NCBI RefSeq assembly: GCF_030384885.1
Contig: NZ_CP128613.1
Reading direction: 5' to 3' (one strand)
From: Escherichia coli
GTDB taxonomy: Bacteria; Pseudomonadota; Gammaproteobacteria; Enterobacterales; Enterobacteriaceae
DNA: 64,000 nt
Shown here: positions 5,243 to 23,714 of the stretch, piece after piece
Layout: each line of letters opens with the position of its first letter
How positions within the stretch are numbered: position 1 is the first letter of the stretch
Notes under the pieces: generated by a model
Database searches by the model: none
Seen by the model: the letters and a program-made list of their open reading frames with translations, nothing else
Told to the model about the DNA's origin: nothing
Position numbers and translations under genes: made by a program

Positions 5243-5658
5243 CCACGATAGTCAATGAGACTGGGCATCTCGAAATCTATGGCAAACATCACTGCAGTTC
5301 TTTCACATCGGGTGATGAAAATGCACTTCAGTCTGAAAGGAATATGAAAATGAGATCAACAGACACTCTATTTTATGACTCTGGGTAAAATGGATTGAGT
5401 AAGTGATATAGCTTACGAACATTCAAATCAATCAAACATCAGAAGAGATTTTATACTCAGGTATTTAATCTGGATCTCTGTTTATTTAAATAATGTGGAA
5501 AGAGATTTTTCACAGGAGACATTATACAAAAAATATAAAATACAGCTATCGGTTGCCAAAGACACTATAAGCCTGGCAAAAAATATTACACAACATAAAT
5601 GCTAATTGTTTATGCGGGCTTTGTATTGCTTTCTGTATCCTACAAATGAGTGAAATTT

Positions 5659-6375
5659 ATGAAAAAGGCTAAAATACTTTCTGGCGTATTATTACTGTGC
5701 TTTTCGTCACCATTAATTTCTCAAGCTGCGACACTGGACGTACGTGGTGGATATCGTAGTGGAAGCCACGCCTATGAGACTCGACTCAAAGTCAGTGAGG
5801 GATGGCAAAATGGATGGTGGGCAAGCATGGAAAGTAATACCTGGAATACCATTCATGATAATAAAAAGGAAAATGCCGCACTCAATGATGTTCAGGTTGA
5901 AGTTAATTACGCGATTAAACTTGATGATCAATGGACGGTGCGCCCGGGAATGTTAACGCATTTTAGCAGTAACGGCACACGCTACGGACCCTACGTAAAA
6001 TTGTCCTGGGACGCGACAAAAGATCTTAATTTTGGCATTCGCTATCGTTACGACTGGAAAGCTTACCGACAACAAGACTTATCCGGTGATATGTCTCGTG
6101 ATAACGTTCATCGTTGGGATGGATATGTCACTTACCATATTAATAGTGATTTCACCTTCGCATGGCAAACGACGCTATACAGCAAACAAAACGATTATCG
6201 CTATGCAAACCATAAGAAATGGGCGACGGAAAATGCATTTGTTCTACAATACCATATGACGCCTGATATTACGCCATACATAGAATATGACTACCTTGAC
6301 CGTCAGGGTGTTTATAACGGCAGAGATAATTTATCAGAAAACAGTTATCGCATTGGTGTGTCATTTAAACTGTAG
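5659..6375 (+). CDS. nanC: N-acetylneuraminic acid outer-membrane channel NanC (KdgM family porin)
   Basis: 238 aa from ATG 5659 (MKKAKILSGVLLL..., signal peptide); ORF-track GTG start at 5650 trimmed. Confidence 0.9.
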   Translation: MKKAKILSGVLLLCFSSPLISQAATLDVRGGYRSGSHAYETRLKVSEGWQNGWWASMESNTWNTIHDNKKENAALNDVQVEVNYAIKLDDQWTVRPGMLTHFSSNGTRYGPYVKLSWDATKDLNFGIRYRYDWKAYRQQDLSGDMSRDNVHRWDGYVTYHINSDFTFAWQTTLYSKQNDYRYANHKKWATENAFVLQYHMTPDITPYIEYDYLDRQGVYNGRDNLSENSYRIGVSFKL

Positions 6376-6394
6376 TAGACAGGAGACAGTCACA

Positions 6395-7501: not shown

Positions 7502-7565
7502 TGCTTCAGGGCCCCAGTAAAGGGGCCCTGCTATCAATTTATCATTTCAATTACGCGAAAATTAT

Positions 7566-8546
7566 ATGAACGCAATAATATCGCCCGATTATTACTATGT
7601 TCTTACCGTTGCTGGTCAGTCTAATGCCATGGCGTATGGCGAAGGACTGCCATTACCGGACAGGGAAGATGCGCCTCATCCCAGAATTAAACAATTAGCG
7701 AGATTTGCGCATACGCATCCCGGAGGCCCGTCATGTCACTTTAACGACATTATTCCACTGACTCACTGCCCACACGATGTTCAGGATATGCAGGGTTATC
7801 ACCATCCTCTGGCAACGAATCATCAAACACAGTACGGCACCGTTGGCCAGGCACTGCATATTGCACGGAAATTACTGCCCTTTATTCCTGATAATGCAGG
7901 GGTTCTCATCGTTCCGTGTTGCCGTGGCGGATCGGCTTTTACCGCGGGCAGCGAAGGGACATATTCAGAACGGCACGGAGCCAGCCATGATGCTTGTCGT
8001 TGGGGAACGGATACTCCGCTATACCAGGATTTAGTCAGCAGAACGCGAGCCGCACTGGCAAAAAATCCGCAGAACAAATTCCTCGGCGTATGCTGGATGC
8101 AAGGCGAATTTGACTTAATGACCAGTGACTACGCGTCACACCCTCAACACTTTAATCATATGGTTGAAGCCTTTCGTAGGGATCTAAAACAATACCATTC
8201 TCAGCTTAATAATATTACTGGCGCGCCGTGGTTTTGCGGCGATACCACCTGGTACTGGAAAGAAAGTTTCCCTCATGCGTATGAAGCTATTTATGGCAAT
8301 TATCAAAATAATATTTTAGCCAATATTATTTTCATCGACTTCCAGCAACAAGGTGAAAGAGGGCTGACGAACGCGCCTGATGAAGATCCGGACGATTTAA
8401 GCACGGGATATTTCGGTTCAGCGTACCGGTCACCGGAGAACTGGACGACGGCACTGCGAAGCAGTCATTTCAGCGCGGCAGCCCGTCGGGGGATTATTTC
8501 TGACAGGTTTGTAGAAGCAATTTTGCAGTTTTGGAGCGAAAGGTGA
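7566..8546 (+). CDS. nanS: 9-O-acetyl-N-acetylneuraminate esterase NanS
   Basis: 326 aa, MNAIISPDYYYVLTVAGQSNAMAYGEG... (SGNH-like esterase motif GQSN). Confidence 0.9.
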   Translation: MNAIISPDYYYVLTVAGQSNAMAYGEGLPLPDREDAPHPRIKQLARFAHTHPGGPSCHFNDIIPLTHCPHDVQDMQGYHHPLATNHQTQYGTVGQALHIARKLLPFIPDNAGVLIVPCCRGGSAFTAGSEGTYSERHGASHDACRWGTDTPLYQDLVSRTRAALAKNPQNKFLGVCWMQGEFDLMTSDYASHPQHFNHMVEAFRRDLKQYHSQLNNITGAPWFCGDTTWYWKESFPHAYEAIYGNYQNNILANIIFIDFQQQGERGLTNAPDEDPDDLSTGYFGSAYRSPENWTTALRSSHFSAAARRGIISDRFVEAILQFWSER

Positions 8547-8639
8547 GCGGGGAGTTTATTCATGGGGGATGTCCTTGTCCGTTCCCAAAACAGGCAACAA
8601 AAAACAAATGAGATCAAGGTAATATCTCTTCACTTGCAG

Positions 8640-8900
8640 GCTCGAACAGCAGGCAATTGCCAATATAATAATCTGGCACAAGGGTGAAAAACGCGCACCG
8701 CATAAACCGTTGTTATTGCTTACAGATTAGCCGGATGCCTTAATAGACATCCGCGCCTTTTCGATTATGGCTCGGAAATCTACGAACCTCTGCACAGTTT
8801 ACTGGAACGTTTTGGACCACAGCGTTCACAGTACCGACCTGATATGCCGTTCTGGCGATTATAAGGCGACGGATTCTGGCAAATAGACGATGATAATATG
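8640..8900 (+). pseudogene. Degraded fragment paralogous to the N-terminal domain of the HNH-nuclease gene at 19855-20730
   Basis: Frame-shifted translation gives NIIIWHKGEKRAPHKPLLLL and LFDYGSEIYEPLHSLLERFGPQRSQYRPDMPFWRL, matching NITIWRKGEQRAPHKPLLLL...RLFNYGSEIYEPLLDLLERYGPQRRDQRPDMPFWRL of the 20227-20775 ORF; stops and frameshifts present. Confidence 0.6.
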
Positions 8901-9128
8901 CTTAATGATGTTCAAAGAAATTAGGCCATCATTATATTATTGCTTGCATTTTCTTTCATTCCCAAAAGCACCCGCCATTAATCCCAGGCGCATTATGCAA
9001 AGGAAAATGATTAGGTAAACAATAAGATTTATAATCAGGAAAGGCGACTCGCAATAAAACGCAAAGTCGCCTTAACATTGGTAAAATATGCCCTTTACTA
9101 CTCCTGTATCATGAACGGCTCATCACAT

Positions 9129-12100
9129 TTAAAGCTGACGTTGATCCAGACTGCTATATATTGCCTTTATTTCATTTTTTACGCTTTCGCCACGGTACAC
9201 CAAAGACGTATCGTATCGTTGATACTTATCTTCCCGTGCAGCACTGAACCAGTTAAAAGATCCGACACACAGCAGTTCTTCATCCTCAATTACAATTTTG
9301 CTGTGGACACGATTAACCAATTTCGTAGCGATACCCATCTTATTGAGCTTTTCAACAGCATCATTCAGCAGATGTTTTTTCTCCTGACGCTTATCATCAT
9401 CGACATGCGCTATATTGCAGTTTTTATCCGTCACCACAGTAATATCAATGCCCCGGGAACGGGCCAAAGCCATTGATGCCAGAAATCCCGTTTGCTCCAT
9501 TTTTTGCCAGGATAACCAAGGGGAAATAATCGTTATTTTCTTTTGAGCTCCGGCAAGAGTCTTGTTCAAAAATTCATCATGCGGCTCCACGCCATGCAGC
9601 GTTGAAATTTGTGTATGTGCGGAAATTAAATCCTGTCGTTTATGAAACTCAAATTGCAACGCATTATTATCTGAAGAAAAGAGATATTTTGCCAATAACC
9701 CTCGCGGCGAAAATGCGGGCTGCATCTCGATAAGGTCCATATCGCCAAATACCAGAAAACTATCTTTAGCGCGTGAGACAGCAACATTGAGGATACTGCT
9801 GTTGCTATCAAGAAACCTGCCATCTTCATGTTTTGAGTAGACTGGAGAAAAGAGAACAATCGCCCTTTCCGCCCCCTGCAAGGAGTGCACAGTCCCCACT
9901 GTCAGTGAACCCTCCTCGTCTTTGCCATTAATTTCCAGCTTACGCAATGACGTTTTGATAGCATTAACCTGCGCCGAAAATGGCGTCACAACACCAACAA
10001 CTTTGTACAGTGGTTCCCCGTAATGGCGCTCTATATCATCCTTATGTGCCACCAGCCATGCTGCTATTGTTTCAGCTTCAAGAGGGTTATAACGGCTCCC
10101 CCCATTTGGCTTCATGCCTCTACCATCAATATGTAAATATCCCATTGCGGGGAAAATCGTCCCTTTTTCTATCCCTCTTTTAGGCTGCAACTTACCGTGA
10201 TAGCAAAGTGAGTTACAGTAGCCGATGATGTTATTGAAACAGCGACGATGCTCATACAGATACATTCCGCGCTCGAACTTGGGATCATACTGGTAGTGAG
10301 AGTTAAACTGGGCTACCTGCATTACGCTGCCAGATGCTGCACTTTTTCCAGACCCACACACGTGAGTATATGTATTTATTAACTCTTCCTGAGTGCCACC
10401 AGAAATAATATTCTCCTCAAGCATATTGCCCATATCAGTGACGGGTAGACAATTCCAGATTGGAGCTATTTGCTCCGTATCGCCAATCACCAGCGCTTTC
10501 TTCGCCAATGCAAAGGAAGCTGCAGCAACCTCCGGGAGTACCTGCCCGGCTTCATCGACAATCAGTAAATCAGCAAAGTTATATAAATAATTATTATCCG
10601 ATGTTCTATCGCCACCAAAAGATTTTCTTCTGTTCATATGGTAAGGCAACATGTAGCAGGTCATCACCACACAAGGAGTAAGTTTCATTCTTCTTAGCCA
10701 ACGAGCCTCGGCGATAGTTATCCCGGTAATTCCTTTTTCTTTTTGCAAATTATCTATAGCTGCCATATCAATCAGCCAACGCCCCTCCCAATAATGGGTC
10801 GCTACCAAGAACGCTGGAAAACGAATCTGAGTATCGGCAAGTTCATCCGCTCCTGAAAGATTCAATTCATCGTCACCTCTGTAACCCAAAGCATAAGTCA
10901 ACTCACGCCATTGTTTTGCAGCTTCTATTTCGCGTCGGGCTATATCCTTCGCATAGTTGATGTTCTGTTGGCACTCATCCTGCTCCTTTTGCGTTTTAGC
11001 AATCAAACTATCAATAAATTCATCAATATCTTCGGGATAATTTCCCTGGAACGATGTCATTCTTGTGCCAAACGTAGAGTCCAGGAAGAGGTTAATCTGG
11101 TAATGGCGTTTAGTACGAACAGCAGGAAGCCATGACAAAACCGCATACACTAGCGACTCATCAGCACGGTATTGCTGCCACTGCTTTTTACCTCTGGTTA
11201 AAAGTGAAATTTCATTGCCAATATTGAGAAGACGTGTATTTTCGTCCTGAAGATACTGGTCGAGATTCTCACTGATGGCTCGCTGTTCATGGCGGATATC
11301 ATTAAGCCTGCGCCATGCGGGTTCGATTTGCTGAAGTTGAATAAACTGTGAAGTTAAACGTTCATGCAAAAGCGTCACTACATGCTCTGGTGAATTGCAC
11401 TCTCCAGCTCCAAACGCCACCTCCGCTTTTTCAAGGTAAAATGCCCGGGCTTTTTCCAGATATTCCTGGGATTCAACGTGGTTAAAAAAATCTTCAGTCT
11501 GGTATTTCTTCGCAGCCTCAACCTGACGGCTTTTAGACGGAAAATAAGCGCCATAGCTTATTACCTCCGGCAACCAACGACCAGCCATTACGCCAAAACC
11601 AGTAGAGAAATCTTTTCCAAAGGCTTCAATAATATTGGTGACGGCCTGATTGTTAGTTGATGTGGCAATAATTACAGGAGGTTCAGCTTGATTAAGTGCG
11701 GCTCTAGTCCATTCGGTGGCGATAATAGAAAGCACCAGCGTAGTTTTACCCGTTCCCGGAGGACCGTTAACAGCGAGCATATCCCCCTGCTGTTGAGTCA
11801 GATAATGGCTCAGGGCATCGCGCTGCGCCACTGCCAGCGGAAACTTATCGCCGGAATGCCCCAGACGTTCGCAGAACATAGCATTCTTAGCGAGAAGTGG
11901 CTCTAGTGGAACCATTTCATTTGAGGCAAAACGCGTTAATAGAGGAACCTTAACCTGGCTCATCAGCAGATGGTCATACAAAGGCAGGATATGAACACTG
12001 GCCCCTACATGCTGGCTAGCTTTAACAATATAACCGTATCCAGCCCGTTCGTATGGCTCAGATGTAGCGACCCAATTTCCAGCGACGTTTCTTAAAAGGT

Positions 12101-12644
12101 TATCTGACTGTTGAAGATAATTTTGCCAATGCTGACGATACCTGGCATGGCGTTCCGCTTTCTCTTCGTCAGTTTCTTCGTAATGTTCTGGTTGACCTTC
12201 ATTAATGGTGGCTGTGTTATGCGTAGTTTTGTATTTGTCATATTGCACCAACTCACCAATAGAAAAATGACCGGAAGGGAGAGGTTCAAGCAGATCGCGG
12301 GGAATAGTGGCTGAAGCGGCAGGAAACAAAAAACCTTCCCTATTAAGAAGAGCGGAGGTAACCAGTGGCGTAATAATTGCGGGTGCACCTGCCGTTTGCT
12401 CTTTGCCATGCTTTACAATGCGGTTCCATACCTGGGGCCGTAACACGACTTCAACGTTTTTTACAGACTCCCCTTCACCGTCAAAAAATGCCCGAATAGT
12501 TTCGTCATCCAACTGCCCTGCGCTGATATTTATCCACCGAATGAATGATTCTGTATCTTTACGTGAAAACGTTCCTTTGCCAGATTCGGCGTCAGCTAAG
12601 GAGTTGCGCCAGTATGAAGTGAATCCCAATGTATTGCTGTCCAT
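9129..12644 (-). CDS. Large helicase-nuclease fusion: N-terminal unknown region, SF1 Upf1/DNA2-like helicase, C-terminal PLD (HKD) nuclease; type II Mokosh-like defence candidate
   Basis: 1171-aa ORF, ATG at 12644. Walker [13 protein letters not shown], Walker [10 protein letters not shown], helicase motif [18 protein letters not shown]-terminal HKD motif [19 protein letters not shown]. Confidence 0.85.
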
Positions 12645-12837
12645 TTCTCATTCCGTGACATAATAGAAATCATTGATTTCATTGATGTAAATATTACTTA
12701 TGATTAAACATTGTCCACGATGCGAGCGCGATCGCAATAAATATTGTGCCTGGAGGATGGATTAGATTTTCTGAAAGAGCTAAATCCTTAATAGATAAAC
12801 GCGTACATACTTGGTTCGGTATTCTTAAGGGATTTAA

Positions 12838-12961
12838 TATGGATTGAACCAGGTTGACGTTAGTTGAAAAAAACAGTGGAAAAGATTTGTGTGGCGCGGA
12901 TTTCAGGCATAAAAAAAGACCTCAGTTGAGGTCTATTTACATACTTTTGGTGCGAAGGCCG
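12838..12961. repeat. Direct repeat copy 1 (island-distal att-like site): leuX 3' flank plus 14 nt of tRNA 3' end
   Basis: 12894-12953 is a 60-bp perfect copy of 22361-22420; about 55 bp upstream shows roughly 85 percent similarity; ends in TGGTGCGAAGGCCG, matching the leuX 3' end with a 1-nt deletion. Confidence 0.8.
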
Positions 12962-13077
12962 CACCGCGATTCCAGACTCAACAATATGAAATCAATGGAC
13001 TTTTAAAAATGCGAAGTTACTTTGTATACTCACATGTATACTCAGTACCATTTCTTAAGAAATCAATTCATTCAATA

Positions 13078-13875
13078 CTACTCATCATCGTCTTCCACTG
13101 GTTCCAGCACATCAAGCGCAACTCTCACCATAGCGATAGAACCAATACGAATGAAAGCATCTTCTCCATCTTCGTCGGTTATCATAAAACGAACCGTGGT
13201 TTCAGGCTCGCAATCCAGCGCGTCAAAAAAAGCATTCAACTGGCCGATATCATCCGTCTCTTCGTTTTGCGGCGCATCTGGCTCAACACTCAGTGGAATC
13301 ACTGGTCCGCCGTTTACCAGCGTGATATGGACATTAAAATAATCGTCTTCGTAGGCATCATCCTCTTCGTCAACGATTGGCCGCAGACCATCAGAAAGGA
13401 ACTGATGAAATACCACTTCACGCATATTTAACGCATAACGATACTCGGAAGAATCAAAAACGAAGAAGCGTTCTATGTTTGGAGTGTTTTTTTCCTGAAA
13501 ATAATAATAAAACCTCCGCTTATCCACTGCTGAAATGGGCAACAGCAAATAGTCCCGCTGCCCCTGTAGCCAAAGTTTTACGGTCCAGAGACCGCTATCC
13601 ATTTCAATGCCGCTTGTGGCTATAGCCTCAAGATCTTCATCAGTTTTACGACGCTTTTTGCGGAAGTCATTTATCAACCGATCGCTTTCCGGGAACACTA
13701 CGTTTAGAGGCTTATCCAGAGCATTACATATTGCCTGTGCGAGCCCCAGCTTTGCAGCAACCTTCCCGGTTTCGATACGCTGAATTTGTTGCTGGCTGGT
13801 GCCGACCATAAACGCCAGCTCGCGCTGGGTGATAGATAGCTGGGTACGGAGCTGTTTGATGTTGTTCTGTAACAT
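13078..13875 (-). CDS. XRE-family HTH domain fused to an acidic C-terminal domain of unknown function
   Basis: N-terminal helix-turn-helix LSITQRELAFMVGTSQQQIQRIETGK; about 200-aa C-terminal region ending VEDDDE; preferred start ATG 13875 with GAAGGA RBS (alternative 13884). Confidence 0.7.
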   Translation of the reverse strand: MLQNNIKQLRTQLSITQRELAFMVGTSQQQIQRIETGKVAAKLGLAQAICNALDKPLNVVFPESDRLINDFRKKRRKTDEDLEAIATSGIEMDSGLWTVKLWLQGQRDYLLLPISAVDKRRFYYYFQEKNTPNIERFFVFDSSEYRYALNMREVVFHQFLSDGLRPIVDEEDDAYEDDYFNVHITLVNGGPVIPLSVEPDAPQNEETDDIGQLNAFFDALDCEPETTVRFMITDEDGEDAFIRIGSIAMVRVALDVLEPVEDDDE

Positions 13876-13989
13876 GGCATCCATCCTTCAGAAGGAGTAG
13901 AAAGTGCCATTAAAACACAAAATTGAGTATAAACACATAATCGTGTTTATACTCACTAATCAACACCCTTGAACGAAAAGAAAATCTCT

Positions 13990-14265
13990 TCATCGTTCTT
14001 CTCTAGTATGCCAGAGATCGACTATATAAATGTCATTGTCACGAAGTTCGTAGTGAACCTCATGGTCATCAAATAACACTTTTCGGACTTCCCGAGGTTC
14101 ATACCGAGTCTGCTGTACGCCAATTGCCGGATGTGCTGTAAGACCAGCACAACCAGTAATCAGGCGATCCAAAACGTCATCGGCGTGCTGGCGGCTATAC
14201 TGAAGGGCGAAACGGTAGATACGCTCAAGGTCATCCTGAGCTTTAAGCGTCCAGTAAATTTCCAT
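13990..14265 (-). CDS. ParE/RelE-superfamily toxin
   Basis: 91 aa, C-terminal IYIVDLWHTREER typical of ParE; starts 3 nt after the upstream RHH gene stop. Confidence 0.75.
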   Translation of the reverse strand: MEIYWTLKAQDDLERIYRFALQYSRQHADDVLDRLITGCAGLTAHPAIGVQQTRYEPREVRKVLFDDHEVHYELRDNDIYIVDLWHTREER

Positions 14266-14268
14266 TAA

Positions 14269-14517
14269 TCAGGATTTCTTTAAGCGATTAGCAAAATCCA
14301 CCATGTCCGAGTGGCTCACCACGCGACCGGCATCCACATCCGCAAGACCGGCCTGGATGCTCTGGTGACGCCGTTCTCTTTCGGCCAGCATACTGGTCAA
14401 CGCTTCCTTAATAATCCAGCTCTTAGAACGATCTAACTCAATTGCCAGATTCTCAACAGCAGCGGCCAATTCAATAGGTATCTGTGCGCTGATGGTTTGT
14501 TTAGTAAGCGAACCCAT
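14269..14517 (-). CDS. Ribbon-helix-helix (ParD/CopG-like) antitoxin
   Basis: Small ORF directly upstream of the ParE-like gene; RHH-like N-terminus; start at 14517 (GAGGT RBS) preferred over the ORF-track start 14541. Confidence 0.65.
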   Translation of the reverse strand: MGSLTKQTISAQIPIELAAAVENLAIELDRSKSWIIKEALTSMLAERERRHQSIQAGLADVDAGRVVSHSDMVDFANRLKKS

Positions 14518-14592
14518 AGGGATTACCTCGTTTAATAACATTTAATAACTCCTATTAATATTAGCATAAAGGTGCTTATAAAAACATCAATC

Positions 14593-15426
14593 TCATTTCG
14601 CAGGTAACATCCCCGGAAAGTGCTTCGCCACGATATCATTCATCTTCTCCACCAGATCCAGGCGTTTGAAAGTGATATGCCCACTGCCCTTCTGAAAGTA
14701 GCGAATAGTGAACAACTCATCTTCGAAAATCTGCTGATGCGGATTATCGCGCACAAAATCCATAAACCGGATGGAGACATCATGCCGGTTATCAGGAATG
14801 GTCTTTCCATCCAGCAGGTAGAACATCCGTTCCAGATCGGCAAGCTGATCTCTCCGCCAGCCCCAGTTCAGGCTGTAGCCCCATCTGTCATGCTTCACCA
14901 GATTGTTAACGATAATCTTCTTACCGAAATAACAGGGATTATTGGTTTTGTAATCCCAGCTCAATCCCTTAAATACATTGATAATCCCACGTTCGAAAAC
15001 GTCCTGCTTATTGTGGTGGAGTTGTTCAAAGGTACTCAGGATGTTGGCTTCGCTAATCGCCGGGAGATCGCCCTCCTCCAGGTTCTTTGCCCACTGACTG
15101 CGGGCTTCGGCATCCATCAAGGTCAACATCCCGGACTTCAGCATGAGATCGCGCCAGATGCTGCGATCGATATTGCGGGTGATCACCGGCATGGCTTTAT
15201 CCACCGGCTGCACCAGCCAGCAGTCGAAGGAATGGCCCTGACGCATCGCCCAATGCTCCGCCACATCACCACCGATGCTGGAGGTTAGCCGTGAGATATC
15301 ATCAAGCTTATGGATCAGGATTTCTATCAGACTCAACGCAGCATCACGACCCGTCACGATACGCTCAACACTGGTCGAGCAAATTAGCTCGTTATGATCG
15401 GTTAAGACTTCAGCTTCTGTTTGCAT
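14593..15426 (-). CDS. Conserved hypothetical protein of the type commonly encoded downstream of cbtA-family toxin genes (possibly DUF4942-like)
   Basis: 277 aa from ATG 15426 (ORF-track TTG start at 15450); no motif I can assign; position after CbtA-like toxin. Confidence 0.6.
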   Translation of the reverse strand: MQTEAEVLTDHNELICSTSVERIVTGRDAALSLIEILIHKLDDISRLTSSIGGDVAEHWAMRQGHSFDCWLVQPVDKAMPVITRNIDRSIWRDLMLKSGMLTLMDAEARSQWAKNLEEGDLPAISEANILSTFEQLHHNKQDVFERGIINVFKGLSWDYKTNNPCYFGKKIIVNNLVKHDRWGYSLNWGWRRDQLADLERMFYLLDGKTIPDNRHDVSIRFMDFVRDNPHQQIFEDELFTIRYFQKGSGHITFKRLDLVEKMNDIVAKHFPGMLPAK

Positions 15427-15540
15427 AATCTTTTGTCCGTATAAAAGCAAATGCGCCAGCCATGAACAGCAGGCGCATTATGCAGGGAGTTATGAGGGAA
15501 GTAATTTTGGCGATGTAAATCGGGAAGGAGACTCGCAGAT

Positions 15541-15882
15541 TCACCGTGCCGTGGTGTTATGGCAGCGACGCAGCAGACCTGTAGCCTGCCGCGCCCGCAA
15601 AATATCGACCGCACGAAGATAAGGCGTCTGTTCCCGCCAGCTAAATCCTTTCCTGTCGATACGGATCAATTCGTACTTCTCCACCAGAAAATTGATGGCA
15701 TCAACCAGAGTGATCCCGGCGTCTATGTGTTCCTGAATCACCTTTTCATTGTTGAATGGTGTGTCATTAAGGTTCAGTCCGTAGTGCTGCTCCAGCAGGC
15801 GGGCCAGTAATGTTTGCCAGACCACGACGGGCGACAGATATGACGTCGTCGCCCGCAGCGTCGTTGCAGGAATAATTTTCAT
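15541..15882 (-). CDS. CbtA/YeeV/YkfI-family toxin
   Basis: 113 aa, [60 protein letters not shown] resembles YeeV/YkfI/YpjF. Confidence 0.8.
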
Positions 15883-15912
15883 AACGATGTTCCGTATTAA
15901 GGAGGTTAAAAC

Positions 15913-16248
15913 TCAGCGTTGAGTGGGATAAATAGCGATATAGACGTAACCACAGGAACCCAGCGTATCGGCTTCGCAGGTTAGTCCTTTGGCGTATAGC
16001 GTGACGGTACGTTGTTGGCAGGGGGAGAGTTCACCGTCAGCCAGTTTCAGCTCCAGTTGTTTCATCAACACCGGAAAAGCCTGGTCGATATGCAGCAGAT
16101 CCGGGGAGCTGAATTTCCCGGTAATTGCGGCCCGATCAGCCAGGTAATGCAGGTTATGTCTTTCCTGTACCAGTCGAGCAGTGAAGCGTGGTGTTACGGT
16201 ACAGGGAAGCCCCCATTCTTGTTGCATGACCTTGTCCTTTTGCAGCAT
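15913..16248 (-). CDS. CbeA/YeeU/YafW-family antitoxin
   Basis: 111 aa, WGLPCTVTPRFTARLVQERHNLHYLADRAAI...TVTLYAKGLTCEADTLGSCGYVYIAIYP resembles YeeU/YfjZ; directly upstream of the toxin. Confidence 0.8.
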   Translation of the reverse strand: MLQKDKVMQQEWGLPCTVTPRFTARLVQERHNLHYLADRAAITGKFSSPDLLHIDQAFPVLMKQLELKLADGELSPCQQRTVTLYAKGLTCEADTLGSCGYVYIAIYPTQR

Positions 16249-16360
16249 TACAGCCAGCCCCGTTCGGCAAAAGAGAGGACATCCCCCGCCCCAATAATGA
16301 AATGATCCAGCACCCTCACTTTCACCAAATCCAGTGTCTTAACAATATTCGTTGTAATAA

Positions 16361-16909
16361 GTCTGTCGGCCCGACTGGGTTCCCTATGAGGTTGTCACGC
16401 ACACCACAGAATTCCTGCGCGAAGGCATCAAACGGGAGAAATTAAGCGACGCACAAATCCGCGAACTGGAAGAACAAGGCATAGATCCCAATACGCTGGA
16501 GTTTGATGGTAAGGCGCTGGATGAGGCGATCTACAACAAAGACACCAACCGCTATATCCTGCGTAACCTGATGGAAAATGGCCTGAAAGATCGGGACGGC
16601 CAGTTGCCTGGTAAAACCATCATTTTCGCCCGTAACCACAAACACGCGCTGCTGTTGAATGAATTGTTCGACGATATGTACCCGGAAGGGATTGATGCTG
16701 GCGTTGATTTTAAAGATCGCACGCAGGCGGCGTTTGTTGTACCAAAAGAAGATATTGCTGCGCAGAAATACGACCTCTCTATTAATCGTTATAAAGAAGT
16801 GGTGTATCAGGCTGAGGAGTATGAAGATCCGAAAGTGATACTGAAGCGGTTAAAAGATCTGGAAAATGAGATTCTGGCGGATCTGAATGAGCTGGAGGGA
16901 ATGCTGTGA
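16361..16909 (+). pseudogene. 5'-truncated remnant of the R-M gene that precedes hsdS (hsdM-like C-terminus)
   Basis: In-frame coding sequence from 16361 with no start until ATG 16571; C-terminal KYDLSINRYKE motif; stop overlaps hsdS start (GTGA at 16906-16909). Confidence 0.5.
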
Positions 16910-18090
16910 GTTGGCCGTTAGGAAAAGTTTCCGATATTGCTGCTGTTATATCCGGTTTTGCTTTTAAAAGCGAATGGTTTGGTACAGGAGACGCAAAGGT
17001 TATCCGAATTGGCGATCTTAAGAACGGAAAAATCGATCTTAGTGATGCAATGATCTTTGATCATAAAACTAATAAAGTTCGCGAACAATTTAGAATCAAA
17101 AGCGGCGATATTTTAATGGCTCTTTCTGGCGCAACTGTTGGGAAGATCGCAGTTGCTGATGCTGAAGCTGAAGGTGCATATCTTAATCAACGAGTAGCAG
17201 TGATTCGAGGGCGAAATCATGAAAATGCAGAATATTTAAAATACGTATTTTCAGGACACCCTCTCCAAAAACTACTCCTAAATGCAGGTGGTGCGGCACA
17301 GCCAAATCTTAGCTCTAAAGACTTGGCAGAGATGGAAATACCTATTCCCCCTCTTACCGAACAAAAAAGAATCTCAACCATACTTGATAAAGTAAATGGC
17401 ATACGTCAAAAGCGCGAGCAAGCCATAAAGCTGGCTGATAATTTTTTGCATACCATTTTTCATGAGATGTTTGGCGATCCTGTTAAAAACCCGAAGGGAT
17501 GGGATGTCGCCTCTTTATTAGAATATGGTTCATTCAAAAATGGAATGAATTTTTCAAAAGGTGAATTGGGATCTGCTTTGAAGTGCCTAGGAGTTGGTGA
17601 TTTCAAATCACTGGCAACGATTACCTGTATGGACAATATCGGTGAAATTGAATTAAATACTCTTCCTTCGGATGATTATCTTTTGAAAGATGGTGATATT
17701 GTCTTTGTCCGTTCTAATGGTAATAAAGCCTTGGTCGGAAGATGTCTTACTATTTATCCAAACAAAGAGAAAGTCACATTTAGTGGGTTTTGCATTCGAT
17801 ACAGAATAAAAAATCCTGCAATCACGCCAGAATATCTCAACTTCCTTTTCCGTACACCGTCAATGAAACAGCAAATGTTGAGCGGGGGCCAAGGGGCTAA
17901 TATTCAGAATATTAGCCAAGGTACCTTATCTGCACTCAGGATACCTGTACCTCCATTGGATAAACAACTTGCTTTTGCCAGATTGGTTGATTTCCATGCA
18001 TCTATTGTGAAAAAACAATATGATAAAATGGCTGAATCCGAAAAACTCTTCAATGCCTTGACTGGTGATTTTTTCACATTTAATGAGTGA
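16906..18090 (+). CDS. hsdS: Type I restriction-modification specificity subunit HsdS
   Basis: 394 aa, two target-recognition-like halves with conserved spacer motifs (NQRVAVIRG, LPPLTEQKRI, IPVPPLDKQ); GTG start with RBS GGAGGGA. Confidence 0.85.
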   Translation: MSWPLGKVSDIAAVISGFAFKSEWFGTGDAKVIRIGDLKNGKIDLSDAMIFDHKTNKVREQFRIKSGDILMALSGATVGKIAVADAEAEGAYLNQRVAVIRGRNHENAEYLKYVFSGHPLQKLLLNAGGAAQPNLSSKDLAEMEIPIPPLTEQKRISTILDKVNGIRQKREQAIKLADNFLHTIFHEMFGDPVKNPKGWDVASLLEYGSFKNGMNFSKGELGSALKCLGVGDFKSLATITCMDNIGEIELNTLPSDDYLLKDGDIVFVRSNGNKALVGRCLTIYPNKEKVTFSGFCIRYRIKNPAITPEYLNFLFRTPSMKQQMLSGGQGANIQNISQGTLSALRIPVPPLDKQLAFARLVDFHASIVKKQYDKMAESEKLFNALTGDFFTFNE

Positions 18091-18145
18091 TGGTTTATAG
18101 GATAACTCATTCATTACAAAATTTATTAAATACATAGAGGGGCAA

Positions 18146-18691
18146 ATGGGTACATATATCTCAGATAAAACAGAAACATGTTTTGATGAATATTCTTTAA
18201 TCGAAAAAGTCGGGGATGGCTATAAGATTAGTGTGTACTCATTTAAGCTTCATACAGGAAATCCTTACCAGCCACATATATCAGAAAGTTATAGTGGTGA
18301 TATTTTTATTAGCTATTTGTACTATGGAAATGATTCTTATTACGAGCGCAGACGTCAGGAATACAGAAAATATTTATCATTAAAAGAAATCCACCTTGCT
18401 ATTCTAAAGATGTTTCCAGATGAGCGAAGAATTGCGATAGGTATAAAAAAAGAAAATTACAGTACCGTAAAAATAACTTATGCGGCAGCGGATGAAGTAT
18501 ATCTTCTTGATATTAAAAATAAAGAGACATTATTGTTAGATAATATATTATGTCTATATGATGTTATTTATAAGCATGAAAGCAACATTAATAAATTGGA
18601 AGGCGAGTTAGCAAGTAGTAAAAAAGAACTCCAAAGTATGAAGATAGATATAAAAGAAAAATGTAAATCTATTCTTGATATTGTTGATTAG
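18146..18691 (+). CDS. Hypothetical protein, AT-rich, predicted C-terminal coiled coil
   Basis: 181-aa ORF, ATG 18146 with RBS AGAGGGG; markedly lower GC than neighbours; no recognisable motif. Confidence 0.55.
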   Translation: MGTYISDKTETCFDEYSLIEKVGDGYKISVYSFKLHTGNPYQPHISESYSGDIFISYLYYGNDSYYERRRQEYRKYLSLKEIHLAILKMFPDERRIAIGIKKENYSTVKITYAAADEVYLLDIKNKETLLLDNILCLYDVIYKHESNINKLEGELASSKKELQSMKIDIKEKCKSILDIVD

Positions 18692-18811
18692 TAAAAACAA
18701 CCCCAGTGGCAATAATTCATTGATATGGAACTCTTCTAATGGCTGAAATATTTTCTTTGCGTTATGATGTTTTGTTCTACAGCCTTGAGATTTCACGTCA
18801 GGAAAGTAACC

Positions 18812-19777
18812 ATGCCTTTAGATTTAAGTAATACTTTAGTTATTGGCATTAGCGCAACTGCGCTTTTTGACATGAGCGAATCGGATCGCATGTTTCGGGA
18901 AACCTATGCGACCGATCCGGATAGTGCCATTGAGAAGTATCGTGCTTATATGCTGGAACACGAAAACCAGCCTTTACAGCCCGGAACAGGCTACCCCTTA
19001 GTCAAAGCGTTGCTGGGGCTGAACCGGTACCGCCAGCCGGATGATAAATCGCCGTTGGTTGAGGTTGTTGTGATGTCGCGCAACAGTCCTGATACCGGTA
19101 TCCGCGTTTTGAATACCATTCGCCATGACAAACTCGATATTACACGTTCAGCTTTTACCGCAGGTGAAACCGTTGCCGATTACCTTGATGCCTTTGATGT
19201 GGATCTGTTTTTAACAACCAACGTTGAAGATGCGCAAAAGGTGATTGATTCCCGATTCTGCGCCGCTGCAATCCTGAAAGATCCGCCTTCTGACGCATCT
19301 GATATCCCGGAAGGGCAAGTGCGCATTGCTTTTGACGGCGACGCGGTACTTTTTTCCGATCAAAGCGAACTGGTTTATAAGACCCAAGGAATGGCTGCCT
19401 TTCATGCTCAGGAAGACGCGCAGCAGGATATCCCTATGGAAGAGGGGCCTTATGCCACTTTGCTAAAAAAAATAGCCAAGCTTCAGGAACGATTGCCGAC
19501 CCGCGTTGAGTATTCTCCTGTTCGTATTGCGCTGGTGACAGCCCGAAATAGCCCTTCGGAAATGCGCGTTATTAAAACGCTAAGAAGCTGGGGGGTATAT
19601 GTCGATGAAGCTTTTTTTCTTGGCGGTGTAGAGAAAACAAAAGTTCTGAAGGCGTTTAGGCCACACATTTTCTTTGACGATCAGGATGTGCATTTGATCG
19701 CGGCTGCAAAGGTAGTACCTTCTGGTAAAGTACCTTATGCCAGTAACTCCGAACTGGCAGAACGTGAAGCATCGTAA
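18812..19777 (+). CDS. HAD-superfamily 5'-nucleotidase-like protein
   Basis: 321 aa from MPLDLSNTLVIGISATALFD; HAD-like motifs FDGDAVLF (DxDxV), VTARNSPSE, FFDDQDVH; RBS AGGAAAG. Confidence 0.6.
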   Translation: MPLDLSNTLVIGISATALFDMSESDRMFRETYATDPDSAIEKYRAYMLEHENQPLQPGTGYPLVKALLGLNRYRQPDDKSPLVEVVVMSRNSPDTGIRVLNTIRHDKLDITRSAFTAGETVADYLDAFDVDLFLTTNVEDAQKVIDSRFCAAAILKDPPSDASDIPEGQVRIAFDGDAVLFSDQSELVYKTQGMAAFHAQEDAQQDIPMEEGPYATLLKKIAKLQERLPTRVEYSPVRIALVTARNSPSEMRVIKTLRSWGVYVDEAFFLGGVEKTKVLKAFRPHIFFDDQDVHLIAAAKVVPSGKVPYASNSELAEREAS

Positions 19778-19854
19778 TTATCGCTAACAAACCATTTAGT
19801 CATTAAGGCTGGATGGTTTGTATACCACACGCAAAATAACTGCCCTCCCCCAGA

Positions 19855-20730
19855 TCAATGCTCTCCTCTGAACACCTCTTTTCTGTGCCATTCCACAAAC
19901 CGCTCGCCAGGATAATTTTCTTTAACCGGTGGCAACGCAATCGCCTTTCCTGCAAAATCCCAGAACAGCCGCTGTACCACCCCACCGCCATTTACCGCGC
20001 CGGAAACCACCACACGCATATTTTCATCCAAACCAATCGAACCACGATCAAACGCTTTATGATGGATGGCGCACAATGCCAGGCCATTAGGTACTTCACA
20101 AGGGCCATGGTGCTGCTTCCATCTGATATGAGCGGCTTCCAGAGCAATCGGCGCATTGTCGTGGCGCATGTTAAAGCCGCAGATAGCGCACTGATAATTG
20201 TAAGCACGTAGCACCATCTGACGGAACTACGGATCGCGTTGACGGAGAGAGGTGCGAATATCAAAACCCATCTCGTCAGCTATCTCTTCCTGAATACTGG
20301 CCGGGAAATGCGCCTCCAGGAGCTGCTGCGCCAGCGTATCAATTAACCTGTGATTTTTTGCCACCAAAGCAAAATTATCGGCATCAAATCCACCAGCAAC
20401 ATTATATTCAATGAGTTCACGTCGGGGCGGCTGGCGGCTACCACTGGTTGAGCACAGTTCCGCGTTATGTAGTTCCCAGAAGCCATCGCCCTTCAGACGC
20501 CAGAACGGCATGTCCGGGCGCTGGTCACGGCGCTGCGGTCCATAACGTTCCAGTAGATCCAACAGGGGCTCGTAGATTTCAGAACCATAGTTAAACAGGC
20601 GACCATGACCCTGCCGATAGTGTGAGAGAACGTACAGCAGCAATAATGGCTTATGTGGCGCACGTTGTTCGCCTTTGCGCCAGATGGTGATATTTGATAT
20701 CGCTTGTTTTAGGGTTTTGTCAGAGGTCAT
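19855..20730 (-). pseudogene. HNH endonuclease-family gene with unknown N-terminal domain, interrupted by one in-frame amber (TAG) codon
   Basis: ORFs 20227-20775 and 19855-20217 are in the same frame, separated only by TAG at 20229-20227 plus 3 sense codons; C-terminal part has HNH motifs CAICGF...EAAHIRWKQHHGP...NGLALCAIHHKAFD. Confidence 0.7.
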
Positions 20731-20861
20731 TGCGTTGGAGAATCCATGAGCACATATTTGCGATGATGCTCGCAACTATATGTACATTCAAGGCATTATT
20801 GCAGACATCCTTTTTCTCTGGCGGTTCTGTACCTGGCAGATAGAATTCTGATAACAACGGT

Positions 20862-20908
20862 AAAAAATACAGCGACCAACCAGTCCTAAGCGGGCTGGTT
20901 GGTCTTTT
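20862..20908. terminator. Hairpin terminator downstream of intB (bidirectional appearance)
   Basis: Stem GACCAACCAG / CTGGTTGGTC with T-run on + (TTTT 20905-20908) and A-run upstream (T-run on minus). Confidence 0.5.
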
Positions 20909-20945
20909 AAATTTAAACATCAGCCGAGGAATAACGGCATTCAAC

Positions 20946-22214
20946 TCACTCGCCATTCCCCCGGTTGATCTTCGCATAGTCAAACGGCGTAATCGCTCTT
21001 TCCCGATTGGCATCCAGAAAATCAGCCCACCACTGTAACATCAGCTTGCGCTCATCCAGATGTTCCGCTTTATGGATATACGCCGCCCTCACCGAATTGC
21101 GTTCCATATGGCTCATCTGGCGCTCCACCGCATCCTTCGACCATAGCCCTGACTCAATTAACGAACTACAGGCCATTGTACGGAAGCCGTGGCCGCAAAC
21201 TTCAACCTTAGTGTCATAACCCATCACCCGTAGCGCACTGTTTACCGTGTTCTCGCTCATGGGCTTACGCGGATCGTGATCGCCAATAAAAATCAGCTCA
21301 TGTTCGCCACAGAACTGTTTTATCTGCTTCAGGATCGCCAGCGCCTGCTTTGAAAGCGGCACCAGATGAGGTGTGCGCATCTTTGAACCTCGCTGAGAAT
21401 GTTTCACGCCGGGAATCGGTTCTCGCTCAGGCGGGATGGTCCACATTGATGTTTCAAAATCGATCTCTGACCAGCGAGCAAAACGCAGCTCACTGGATCG
21501 AATAAAAATAAGCAGAGTAAGTTCGGTTGCCCAGCGGGTTAGCGGCCTGCCGGTATAGCCGTCTATTTTCTCAAGCAACTCAGGGATGCGCTTTAACTCC
21601 AGCGCCGGACGATGCTGTCGATTACTGGAAGCAACCGCCCCTGCCATCTCTTGCGCCGGATTGTAATCAATTAACCCGCTTTGCACTGCATAACGCATGA
21701 TGGCCGTGGTGCGCTGTTGAAGGCGGGAAGCCACCTCAAGACGTCCGGATTTCTCCACGGCTTTAATAGGAATTAACAGATCGCGGGTGCCCAGTTCAGC
21801 AATATTGTGGGAACCAATTGCCGGGAAGATATTGTCCTCCAGGCTCTTTTTTACACGATTAGCATGATCTTCCGACCATTTTTGGTTGGTTACGAGCCAC
21901 TCTTTGGCAACCTTCTCGAAAGTAATAATCTCTTTCGCCTGCTCTTCTTTCACAGCACGCTTATGCTCACGAGGATCGATACCAGCAGCTACCAGCTTTC
22001 TGGCCTCTTCCCTTTTCTTCCTGGCATCCGCCAGCGAAACATCCGGGTAAACGCCGAACGCCATCAAATGTTGTTTACCACCAAAACGGAAACGAAATCG
22101 CCAATACTTTGAACCGCCAGGTTTTACAAGTAAGGACATGCCGTCGCCGTCAACAAGTGAATACTCTTTCTCCTCAGGTTTCGCAGAGCGAACTTTAGTA
22201 TCCGTTAGGGCCAT
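20946..22214 (-). CDS. intB: P4-type tyrosine integrase (IntB-like)
   Basis: 422 aa from MALTDTKVRSAKPEEKEY with RBS GGAAGGAAG; C-terminal tyrosine-recombinase catalytic region; adjacent to tRNA-Leu. Confidence 0.9.
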   Translation of the reverse strand: MALTDTKVRSAKPEEKEYSLVDGDGMSLLVKPGGSKYWRFRFRFGGKQHLMAFGVYPDVSLADARKKREEARKLVAAGIDPREHKRAVKEEQAKEIITFEKVAKEWLVTNQKWSEDHANRVKKSLEDNIFPAIGSHNIAELGTRDLLIPIKAVEKSGRLEVASRLQQRTTAIMRYAVQSGLIDYNPAQEMAGAVASSNRQHRPALELKRIPELLEKIDGYTGRPLTRWATELTLLIFIRSSELRFARWSEIDFETSMWTIPPEREPIPGVKHSQRGSKMRTPHLVPLSKQALAILKQIKQFCGEHELIFIGDHDPRKPMSENTVNSALRVMGYDTKVEVCGHGFRTMACSSLIESGLWSKDAVERQMSHMERNSVRAAYIHKAEHLDERKLMLQWWADFLDANRERAITPFDYAKINRGNGE

Positions 22215-22304
22215 AATGGTCTTCCTTCCATTGGTATCTCGTGAGTATACAAGCAATATCGAATCGGCAAATATACTCATTAGTATACTCACAAGCCTGT
22301 TGAT

Positions 22305-22420
22305 GTGGGTTGAGTCAGGTTGACTTCAGTTGAGGGGAAAAGCTGGAAAAGCCTTGTGTAGCGCGGATTTCAGGCATAAAAAAAGACCTCAGTTGAGGTC
22401 TATTTACATACTTTTGGTGC
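22305..22420. repeat. Direct repeat copy 2 (integrase-proximal), covering the leuX terminator hairpin and tRNA 3' end
   Basis: 22361-22420 identical to 12894-12953; contains GACCTCAGTTGAGGTC hairpin plus T-run on the minus strand (leuX terminator). Confidence 0.8.
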
Positions 22421-22499
22421 CGAAGGCCGGACTCGAACCGGCACGTATTTCTACGGTTGATTTTGAATCAACTGCGTCTACCGATTTCGCCACTTCGGC
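22415..22499 (-). tRNA. leuX: tRNA-Leu (CAA anticodon), leuX
   Basis: Reverse complement reads GCCGAAGTGGCGAAATCGGTAGACGCAGTTGATTCAAAATCAACCGTAGAAATACGTGCCGGTTCGAGTCCGGCCTTCGGCACCA, 85 nt with encoded CCA. Confidence 0.95.
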
Positions 22500-22694
22500 A
22501 CTGAAGAGGTATGCGGAAAACGTTGTGGATTATACCTGTCACGCGCCACCATGCAAGCGCCAGCTTGCTCCCACCTCGCTAAGTGCTGAAATTTTCAGCA
22601 TTACATACAGCGATGTGCAACCTTTGTCACACTCCAGGCACCACGCCCTACCATGCTCTACACTTCCCAGACAACACCAGAGAAGGACAAAAAT

Positions 22695-23714
22695 ATGTCG
22701 ATGATAAAAAGCTATGCCGCAAAAGAGGCTGGCGGCAAACTGGAAGTTTATGAGTACGATCCCGGTGAACTGAAACCACAAGATGTCGAAGTGCAGGTGG
22801 ATTACTGCGGGATCTGCCATTCCGATCTGTCGATGATCGACAACGAATGGGGATTTTCACAATATCCGCTGGTTGCCGGGCATGAGGTGATTGGTCGCGT
22901 GGTGGCGCTCGGGAGCGCCGCGCAGGATAAAGGTTTGCAGGTCGGTCAGCGTGTCGGGATTGGCTGGACGGCGCGTAGCTGCGGGCATTGCGACGCCTGT
23001 ATTAGCGGTAATCAGATCAACTGCGAGCAAGGTGCGGTGCCAACAATTATGAATCGCGGCGGTTTTGCCGAGAAGTTGCGTGCAGACTGGCAATGGGTGA
23101 TCCCACTGCCGGAAAATATCGATATCGAGTCCGCCGGGCCGCTGTTGTGCGGCGGTATCACGGTCTTTAAACCACTGTTGATGCACCATATCACCGCCAC
23201 CAGTCGCGTTGGGGTAATTGGTATTGGCGGGCTGGGGCATATCGCTATAAAACTTCTGCACGCAATGGGATGCGAGGTGACGGCCTTTAGTTCGAATCCG
23301 GCGAAAGAGCAGGAGGTGCTGGCGATGGGTGCCGATAAAGTGGTGAATAGCCGCGATCCGCAGGCTCTGAAAGCACTGGCGGGGCAGTTCGATCTCATTA
23401 TCAATACCGTGAACGTCAGCCTCGACTGGCAGCCCTATTTTGAGGCGCTGACGTATGGCGGTAATTTCCACACCGTCGGTGCGGTTCTCACGCCGTTGCC
23501 GGTTCCGGCCTTTACGCTGATTGCGGGCGATCGCAGTGTCTCTGGCTCTGCTACCGGCACGCCTTATGAGTTGCGTAAGCTGATGCGCTTTGCCGCCCGC
23601 AGCAAGGTTGCGCCGACCACCGAACAGTTCCCAATGTCGAAAATTAACGACGCCATTAAGCATGTACGCGATGGTAAAGCGCGCTACCGAGTGGTCCTGA
23701 AAGCCGACTTCTGA
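22695..23714 (+). CDS. ahr: NADPH-dependent aldehyde reductase Ahr (zinc alcohol dehydrogenase family)
   Basis: 339 aa from [14 protein letters not shown]; zinc-ADH motifs ([15 protein letters not shown]). Confidence 0.95.

Follow-up and report, generated by a model that had tools for sequence, protein, structure and literature searches.

The stack and its gene families

The window, a 64,000-nucleotide stretch of an Escherichia coli genome, carries on its minus strand five intact ORFs, from a ParE-family toxin gene to cbeA, between positions 13990 and 16248. A sequence-only reading of this DNA had placed the ORFs at these coordinates, proposing two toxin-antitoxin (TA) pairs, at 13990-14517 and 15541-16248, that flank a gene at 14593-15426. 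The ORFs and a Pfam profile search, in which the gathering score was the threshold for family calls, confirmed this layout and bore out all of the proposed families (ParE, RHH, CbtA, CbeA, and DUF4942), with each ORF spanning nearly the entire profile. The gaps between genes in the stack are short (75 and 114 nt). In NCBIfam, four of the five proteins matched no model, and the RHH antitoxin gave only a sub-threshold RelB-like match. In strain 2013C-4282, all five genes are 100% identical to the window copy; by BLAST, positions 1 to 16383 of the window match that strain at 99.98% DNA identity, with 3 mismatches, none of them in the five genes.

The type II pair consists of an 82-aa RHH (CopG/ParD-like) antitoxin at 14269-14517 (Pfam RHH_1, 3.8e-7; 30.3 bits against a cut-off of 20.5, residues 9-42 of 82) and a 91-aa ParE-family toxin at 13990-14265 (ParE_toxin, PF05016, 3.9e-15; 56.6 bits against a cut-off of 23, profile positions 1-88 of 89). 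As is expected of a type II system, the RHH domain is N-terminal and the small protein is encoded immediately upstream of the toxin. The 3-nt spacing described earlier holds: the antitoxin TGA occupies 14271-14269 and the toxin ATG 14265-14263, with 14266-14268 between them. The antitoxin start at 14517 has GAGG 8 nt upstream and agrees with the RefSeq start of the identical 2013C-4282 gene; a longer ORF, from 14541, is also present. The antitoxin also matches PHROG 25976 at 2.5e-42, and the identical toxin DNA in 2013C-4282 is annotated as WP_106907646.1, a RelE/ParE family toxin.

A single-sequence PDB search with this toxin returned nothing, while a profile built from 23 homologues gave matches at E values of 3.7e-4 to 0.6, the best of which were ParE-type; the toxin resembles solved ParE toxins only weakly. 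These matches included 5CEG (3.7e-4), 5CW7 (0.008), and 7ETR_C (0.008), the last being the ParESO chain, which its depositors named RelE/StbE family. The others were named ParE, plasmid-stabilisation, or merely "Toxin," and none of them bore the name RelE, YoeB, or HigB. The antitoxin matched 6XRW_B (8.3e-5) and the CopASO entries 6IYA and 7ETR_A. These are ParD-like RHH proteins, CopASO included, and we counted them as pointing, tentatively, to the ParE subfamily.

Upstream of the RHH gene, a candidate promoter/operator lies at 14532-14590 on the minus strand. It contains either TTGATG (14590-14585) and TATGCT (14568-14563) separated by 16 nt or, as an alternative, TGcTAATAT (14566-14558), followed by the candidate operator repeats TTAATA (14558-14553), TTATTAA (14548-14542), and TTATTAA (14538-14532). 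The block ATGCTAt..TTAATAA..TTATTAA..TTATTAA is kept upstream of the homologous RHH-ParE pairs of Dickeya and Serratia and, in part, of those of Photorhabdus; further upstream, the sequence is not conserved. A promoter scan of 12700-16700 reported zero minus-strand consensus promoters. Both proposed promoters are therefore below its threshold, and the RHH-ParE promoter is put forward on cross-genus conservation only. RHH-ParE would thus have a promoter/operator-like region of its own.

The type IV pair comprises a 111-aa CbeA/YeeU-family antitoxin at 15913-16248 (PF06154, CbeA_antitoxin, 8.6e-48; 161.5 bits against a cut-off of 27, profile positions 1-101 of 101) and a 113-aa CbtA-family toxin at 15541-15882 (PF06755, CbtA_toxin, 6.7e-56; 187.6 bits against a cut-off of 25, profile positions 1-110 of 112). 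CbeA matched the solved structures 2INW (3e-48), YeeU 2H28 (1.1e-45), and YfjZ 2EA9 (5e-37) and is 67% identical to K-12 CbeA; a single-sequence PDB search with CbtA gave no match. CbtA is 55% identical to K-12 CbtA and keeps F65, the residue on which FtsZ binding by CbtA, YkfI, and YpjF depends (PMC5624674). Position 15 is Y rather than the R whose role in CbtA has been described (PMC5624674). We dropped R15 as a mark of CbtA membership, as it is also absent from YkfI and YpjF, which have C at this position (PMC5624674). In the gap from cbtA to DUF4942, a minus-strand inverted repeat at 15450-15479 forms a stem-loop with 11-nt arms followed by TGCTTTTAT. It is possibly a weak terminator, a reading weakened by its absence from the terminator scan.

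The middle gene (14593-15426) encodes a 277-aa protein that belongs to DUF4942, an assignment that had been left for checking (PF13708, 2.7e-70; 236.4 bits against a cut-off of 25, profile positions 1-189 of 190). Its predicted model is confident (pLDDT 91) and had no relative, methyltransferase-like or other, among solved structures; the sole match in a single-sequence PDB search was a chance one. Some sources label DUF4942 a SAM-dependent DNA methyltransferase. We rejected this label for the 277-aa protein, which has no methyltransferase Pfam match; in distant DUF4942 homologues of about 465 aa, a methyltransferase domain is appended as a unit of its own on the C-terminal side (residues ~305-411). 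In phages and distant bacteria, DNA methyltransferases carry DUF4942 as their N-terminal part; their catalytic domain is missing here. Our literature search found DUF4942 in annotation tables only. It is a widespread family that has a confident model and is without a structural or functional assignment.

Island setting and deletions upstream of cbeA

The stack had been attributed to a CP4-like island, and this setting was borne out by a P4-type integrase, a tRNA-Leu(CAA), an att-like repeat, and the gene set of an intact relative. The tRNA gene, leuX (22415-22499, minus strand; ARAGORN and Rfam tRNA), forms the proximal island end and was the only hit in an Rfam scan of 9000-23500. Beside it lies the integrase (ORF 20946-22292, minus strand), with Arm-DNA-bind_3, Phage_int_M, and Phage_integrase domains (Pfam); the relative's RefSeq annotation makes this protein shorter, at about 422 aa. 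At the other end, alignment with 22300-22430 revealed a distal att-like repeat at 12835-12955, a degenerate tRNA-Leu 3' end plus terminator, and this candidate att site marks the island boundary just beyond the stack. In the intact relative, 2013C-4282, radC, DUF932, GTPase, and small HTH genes stand in CP4-like order. This set is mostly deleted from the window copy, which otherwise has the features of a CP4-like island.

The island's last gene (13078-13884, minus strand) encodes a 268-aa HTH_3 regulator (Pfam HTH_3, 1.8e-13; PADLOC HTH_VI, 9.7e-12) with an acidic, unassigned C-terminal part. The gap between the ParE gene and this HTH gene contains a perfect palindrome at 13924-13955, which has 13-nt arms, TGAGTATAAACAC/GTGTTTATACTCA, and holds two over-represented TATACTCA octamers. 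It could be a terminator of the ParE pair or an operator.

Compared by BLAST with 2013C-4282, the window has two deletions upstream of cbeA. The first removed 8.9 kb, from radC to hsdR, and left a GGTTCC microhomology at 16378-16383; the second removed 2.9 kb, from hsdR to hsdM, with GTAyCCG at 16678-16684. A 307-bp hsdR fragment lies between the two junctions, and none of the 5,426 complete E. coli genomes contains the junction region in one piece. Of radC, a remnant of about 45 C-terminal codons survives at 16248-16383 on the minus strand, as judged by frame translation, and the match between the window and the relative ends at 16383. The radC TAA overlaps the cbeA ATG (TAATG). In the intact relative, the stop of radC (L001, 17249-17722) likewise overlaps the cbeA start, and 29 nt separate the end of DUF932 from radC. 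The deletions thus took most of radC and everything else upstream of cbeA, probably including the native cbeA promoter; our literature search found no published mapping of that promoter. The loss of all that lay upstream of cbeA had been missed in the sequence-only reading.

Prevalence and closest known systems

According to annotation, the gene order cbeA, cbtA, DUF4942, RHH, ParE, HTH is present in 79 of 5,426 complete E. coli genomes. Only 91 of the 5,426 have this RHH-ParE pair. Partial matches, covering the DUF4942 part alone or the cbeA-cbtA part alone, are frequent in E. coli genomes. The arrangement had been called typical of CP4-like remnants; this is true of CbeA/CbtA and DUF4942 (PMC6980539) but not of RHH-ParE or of the full stack, given these counts. 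The stack is ordinary and already known, as identical genes carry RefSeq names. Its significance reaches little beyond correct annotation, because the TA families are well described, the genes are named in RefSeq, and the stacking of addiction modules at the ends of tRNA-associated islands is familiar.

Homologous RHH-ParE pairs with equal gene sizes and near-equal spacing (a 2- to 3-nt gap) were found in Dickeya, Serratia, and Photorhabdus. In Dickeya, the pair adjoins DUF4942 or CbtA, and an HTH_3 protein of 266-275 aa is encoded downstream of it. In Photorhabdus it stands alone, and in Serratia it is likewise on its own, 164 nt downstream of tRNA-Leu(CAA) (leuX) and without an integrase. 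Because RHH-ParE occurs alone in Serratia and Photorhabdus, with its own conserved upstream block, the two TA pairs look independent of each other. RHH-ParE appears to be a self-contained unit, and its persistence alone at leuX in Serratia fits TA pairs outlasting their mobile elements.

The type IV pair shares its Pfam families with K-12 CbtA/CbeA (YeeV/YeeU of CP4-44, with the paralogues YkfI/YafW and YpjF/YfjZ). In both cases, the antitoxin gene precedes the toxin gene, downstream of a radC-like gene in a CP4-like element. They differ in toxin length (113 aa in the window versus 124 aa in K-12), in the lack of a DUF987 (yeeT) gene in the intact relative, where radC directly abuts cbeA, and in the deletion of the upstream operon in the window. 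A further parallel is the L0007-L0010/orf53-orf56 block of the LEE and SRL islands, in which YeeU/YeeV are followed downstream by the DUF4942 homologue L0010 near the island end (PMC6980539). There, YeeW and DUF957 genes separate the toxin from DUF4942, whereas in the window only 114 nt do so and RHH-ParE comes after DUF4942.

The closest studied relative of RHH-ParE is ParESO/CopASO of CP4So from Shewanella oneidensis (7ETR, 6IYA). Both have a CopG/RHH antitoxin gene followed by a ParE-family toxin gene, a CP4-like element, and a repeat-bearing operator upstream (a candidate one in the window). Sequence similarity is marginal (E values of 0.002-0.008), and the repeats differ, being TTAATA/TTATTAA in the window and GTANTAC-N3-GTANTAC in ParESO/CopASO. 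The latter is autorepressed via inverted repeats and maintains the excised CP4-like prophage CP4So (PMC8706911). Stabilisation and toxicity have been demonstrated for ParESO, whereas for the window pair they are predictions. The solved ParDE pairs from Mesorhizobium opportunistum (5CEG, 6XRW) and E. coli O157 (PaaA2-ParE2, 5CW7), which gave the best toxin-profile matches, and in 6XRW_B of M. opportunistum the best antitoxin match, share the two-gene organisation and are distant relatives only. To our knowledge, PaaA2 of E. coli O157 is not an RHH protein.

Proposed function and alternative explanations

Taken together, the region is very probably two separate TA modules of known type plus a DUF4942 gene, carried as distal cargo of a CP4-like island at leuX. 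From the families and their studied relatives, we infer the biochemical activities, autoregulation, and stabilisation as follows. In the first module, the RHH antitoxin probably keeps the ParE-family toxin inactive by binding it, and the antitoxin dimer probably represses its own promoter via the upstream TTAATA/TTATTAA repeats. Loss of the island or of the antitoxin supply would free the toxin and so penalise island loss, a role suggested by the ParESO/CopASO precedent (PMC8706911). The freed toxin would most likely poison DNA gyrase, as do most ParE toxins; such inhibition is not universal, E. coli ParE2 being one exception (PMC8706911). In the second, type IV module, CbtA would bind FtsZ and MreB, stopping division and elongation, and CbeA would counter it at these targets and not through toxin binding, the mode of action described for K-12 CbeA (Masuda et al. 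2012, as cited in PMC12548467). DUF4942 would be a separate passenger gene.

Two alternatives concern what the pairs do. The 91-aa toxin might be a RelE-type ribosome-dependent mRNA nuclease instead of a gyrase poison, since PF05016 and the RefSeq name span the entire RelE/ParE superfamily, the antitoxin's sub-threshold NCBIfam match is to a RelB-like model (24.9 bits against a cut-off of 50), and the weak match 7ETR_C is labelled RelE/StbE. That chain, however, is ParESO, which its authors grouped with ParE because RNase catalytic residues are absent (PMC8706911); the ParE, plasmid-stabilisation, and "Toxin" names of the remaining PDB matches also speak against a RelE-type enzyme, and the toxin had no NCBIfam match at E values up to 0.01. 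We therefore regard a RelE-type activity as improbable. Equally unlikely in our view is that one or both pairs serve mainly in anti-phage abortive infection and not in island retention. Defence genes abound in and around the island. They include the remnant of a type I restriction-modification system, a pseudogene for a phosphorothioate-dependent restriction endonuclease, a PDC-S08 5'-nucleotidase, and, adjacent, the Mokosh protein MkoC (yjhR). TA systems in general are described in PMC10440598 as increasingly tied to phage defence. Nevertheless, none of the five stack proteins matched any of the 5,027 models of PADLOC-DB v2 at E values up to 0.001, which leaves the earlier suggestion of abortive infection unsupported, and none of the papers we consulted reports phage defence by CbtA/CbeA.

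The other alternatives concern how the genes of the stack relate to one another and whether all are expressed. Since the stack recurs in both E. coli and Dickeya, its parts might still be functionally linked. Conceivably, everything from cbeA to the HTH regulator is one composite system in which DUF4942, and perhaps the HTH protein, provides a third component for signal sensing or for modulation of a toxin. The repeated cbeA-cbtA-DUF4942-RHH-ParE-HTH order in the 79 E. coli genomes, the DUF4942-RHH-ParE arrangement with a downstream HTH_3 gene in Dickeya, and the short intergenic gaps agree with such a system. We consider it very unlikely, given that RHH-ParE occurs without the other stack genes and with its own conserved control region in Serratia and Photorhabdus, that many E. 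coli genomes match one part alone, and that K-12 CbtA/CbeA is functional without an annotated DUF4942 gene downstream (PMC5624674). Even less weight is given to the idea that DUF4942, which is conserved between the two TA pairs, is a recognition or regulatory module detached from a methyltransferase and working with the flanking toxins or the island's restriction-modification genes; if that were true, the stack would be a composite retention/defence unit and not three independent passengers. Within the preferred reading of two separate modules and a passenger, the severing of cbeA-cbtA from the radC-containing operon makes their expression in the window genome uncertain. The pair may be a silent relic whose promoter was lost with the 8.9-kb deletion, leaving RHH-ParE alone active. 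We see this as a serious possibility, though not the favoured one. The radC/cbeA overlap and the 29-nt DUF932-radC gap of the relative suggest one operon driven from further upstream; in the window, that operon is gone, antisense hsdR/hsdM/hsdS sequence is in its place, and the scan finds no minus-strand promoter-like site upstream of cbeA. Against this, the cbeA and cbtA ORFs are intact and identical to those of the relative, the scan applies a strict threshold, under which the likely promoter of the ParE pair was missed too, and expression could come from a promoter within the 135 bp of radC that are left or from read-through. The window genome is a natural test of the dependence of cbeA-cbtA on its upstream operon.

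Family assignments and studied relatives of the five genes

In a Pfam profile search, all five genes of the minus-strand stack scored above the curated cut-offs with nearly the full profile covered: ParE_toxin (13990-14265; 91 aa, E = 3.9e-15), RHH_1 antitoxin (14269-14517; 82 aa, E = 3.8e-7), DUF4942 (14593-15426; 277 aa, E = 2.7e-70), CbtA_toxin (15541-15882; 113 aa, E = 6.7e-56), and CbeA_antitoxin (15913-16248; 111 aa, E = 8.6e-48). The sequence-only reading had described stacked toxin-antitoxin modules here. The ORF list and sequence match its coordinates exactly, and the profile search bears out its ParE, RHH, CbtA, and CbeA families and identifies the gene between the pairs as DUF4942, a membership that it had put up for checking. 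The spacing of only 3 nt that it noted is also present: the antitoxin ends with TGA at 14271-14269, and the toxin begins with ATG at 14265-14263. Its observation is therefore confirmed and its interpretation supported. The stack is nonetheless of low interest, being an ordinary object that is already annotated; RefSeq names for all five genes exist in the near-identical strain 2013C-4282.

FtsZ and MreB are bound by K-12 CbtA independently of each other, and all three K-12 paralogues need F65 to interact with FtsZ (PMC5624674). The CbtA of the window has 55% identity to the K-12 protein and retains F65; its position 15 is Y, and R15 is likewise not conserved in the K-12 paralogues. Its partner shares 67% identity with K-12 CbeA and matches solved YeeU/YfjZ structures (E = 1e-37 to 3e-48).

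For the ParE-like toxin, a single-sequence search returned no PDB match, and a profile of 23 homologues weakly matched ParE-named or plasmid-stabilisation toxins (5CEG, 5CW7, 6XRW, and 8C24) together with 7ETR_C; the antitoxin matched 6XRW_B, 6IYA, and 7ETR_A. Entries 6IYA and 7ETR represent CopASO and ParESO, the antitoxin and toxin of the CP4-like prophage CP4So of Shewanella oneidensis and the closest studied analogue of the RHH-ParE pair. ParESO/CopASO keeps the excised prophage maintained and is autorepressed via inverted repeats, and its authors grouped ParESO with ParE, as RNase residues are absent (PMC8706911). On this precedent, the pair in the window may stabilise the island. Its toxin is probably a ParE rather than a RelE, and gyrase poisoning by it is putative.

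Probable independence of the RHH-ParE pair

The evidence favours independent modules over a single system. Homologous RHH-ParE pairs keep the lengths of both proteins (82 and 91 aa) and a gap of 2 to 3 nt in different surroundings: in Photorhabdus the pair stands alone among housekeeping genes, in Serratia it is again solitary, with tRNA-Leu(CAA) 164 nt upstream and no integrase, and in Dickeya a DUF4942 or CbtA gene adjoins it. The Serratia pair (L009 5501-6276 and L010 4246-5021 in the two loci) adjoins lptFG, carries no other island genes, and resembles a minimal TA islet that occupies the same hot spot.

Alignment of the upstream regions revealed a conserved block, ATGCTAt..TTAATAA..TTATTAA..TTATTAA, just 5' of the ribosome-binding site, beyond which the sequences diverge between homologous pairs. 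In the window, its repeats are TTAATA (14558-14553), TTATTAA (14548-14542), and TTATTAA (14538-14532), preceded by TTGATG-16 nt-TATGCT or TGcTAATAT. Since scanning this region for consensus promoters gave none on the minus strand, it is by inference from the alignment that we read the block as the pair's own candidate promoter and putative RHH operator.

Among 5,426 complete E. coli genomes, 91 carry the RHH-ParE pair, always in single copy and on the chromosome, and 79 carry the full stack. The DUF4942-cbtA-cbeA allele block of the window was found in 143 genomes at a coverage of at least 80%, and many others matched only one part of it. A DUF4942 gene has also been recorded downstream of YeeU/YeeV in the SRL and LEE islands (PMC6980539). 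We treated DUF4942 as a separate passenger gene, with a small chance that it is linked to its neighbours. Its structure model is confident (pLDDT of 91 from a diverse alignment of 86 sequences), and no solved structural relative of the predicted fold was found. Several distant homologues of ~465 aa have an extra C-terminal SAM methyltransferase domain, PHROG 6263 ("DNA methyltransferase") matches the protein via PHROG positions 86-287, and the best BFVD match is a 531-aa phage protein. In distant bacterial and phage homologues, DUF4942 forms the N-terminal part of SAM-dependent methyltransferases; the label "methyltransferase" is unjustified for the island protein because it lacks the catalytic domain.

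The leuX island and its deletions

The CP4-like setting proposed from sequence holds: a P4-type integrase adjoins tRNA-Leu(CAA) (leuX, 22415-22499), the insertion site, and a degenerate repeat of the 3' end of the tRNA, with its terminator, lies at 12835-12955. From the tRNA outward, the order is integrase, defence cargo, (radC ...), cbeA, cbtA, DUF4942, RHH, ParE, HTH_3 regulator, and repeat; therefore, the stack is the distal end of the element, past which older island material, including yjhR, follows. The C-terminal part of the HTH_3 protein (13078-13884, minus strand, 268 aa) is long and acidic and matches no family, and Dickeya has a comparable protein of 266 to 275 aa downstream of its ParE pair. 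The window contains 13 copies of the octamer TATACTCA, where 1.08 would be expected, and seven of them cluster at both island ends and in a palindrome upstream of the HTH gene (13025-13044, 13924-13955, and 22242-22291); these are possible arm-type sites for the integrase or operators for the HTH regulator.

The window is E. coli DNA. Over positions 1-16383 it has 99.98% identity to strain 2013C-4282, and the three mismatches all fall outside the five genes. Compared to the intact island of that strain, the window has an 8.9-kb deletion from inside radC to inside hsdR (junction 16378-16383, GGTTCC microhomology) and a 2.9-kb deletion from hsdR into hsdM (junction 16678-16684); both are microhomology mediated, and their junctions were shared by none of the 5,426 genomes. 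Missing from the window as a result are DUF932, genes for a Gp2-family protein, a small HTH protein, a GTPase, and a WYL protein, and the greater part of radC and of hsdR/hsdM. In the intact island, the TAA of radC and the ATG of cbeA overlap, and radC follows the end of DUF932 after 29 nt; therefore, cbeA-cbtA is probably part of a longer operon whose promoter would have been lost in the window. The second deletion also created an in-frame hsdR'-'hsdM chimeric ORF (16571-16909) of 112 aa, for which Pfam gave no match. This ORF overlaps the first bases of hsdS (16906-18090), an intact gene that is thus left as an orphan specificity subunit.

Defence context

An abortive-infection role, also raised by the sequence-only reading, gained no support, as none of the five stack proteins matched a PADLOC model. 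The neighbourhood is rich in defence genes (MkoC, PDC-S08 5'-nucleotidase, the remnant of a type I restriction-modification system, and a pseudogene for a restriction endonuclease), which is context rather than evidence for such a role. yjhR (9129-12644, minus strand), just outside the distal repeat, aligns from end to end with MkoC, a defence protein of Mokosh (1464 bits). A 5'-nucleotidase family protein (18764-19777, plus strand) matches the PADLOC candidate model PDC-S08 (2.9e-135), and for the 181-aa protein encoded upstream (18146-18691), neither Pfam nor PADLOC gave a match. The gene for an HNH_2 phosphorothioate-dependent restriction endonuclease (19855-20775, minus strand) is split into two ORFs, and the annotation of the relative lists it as a pseudogene interrupted by an internal stop.
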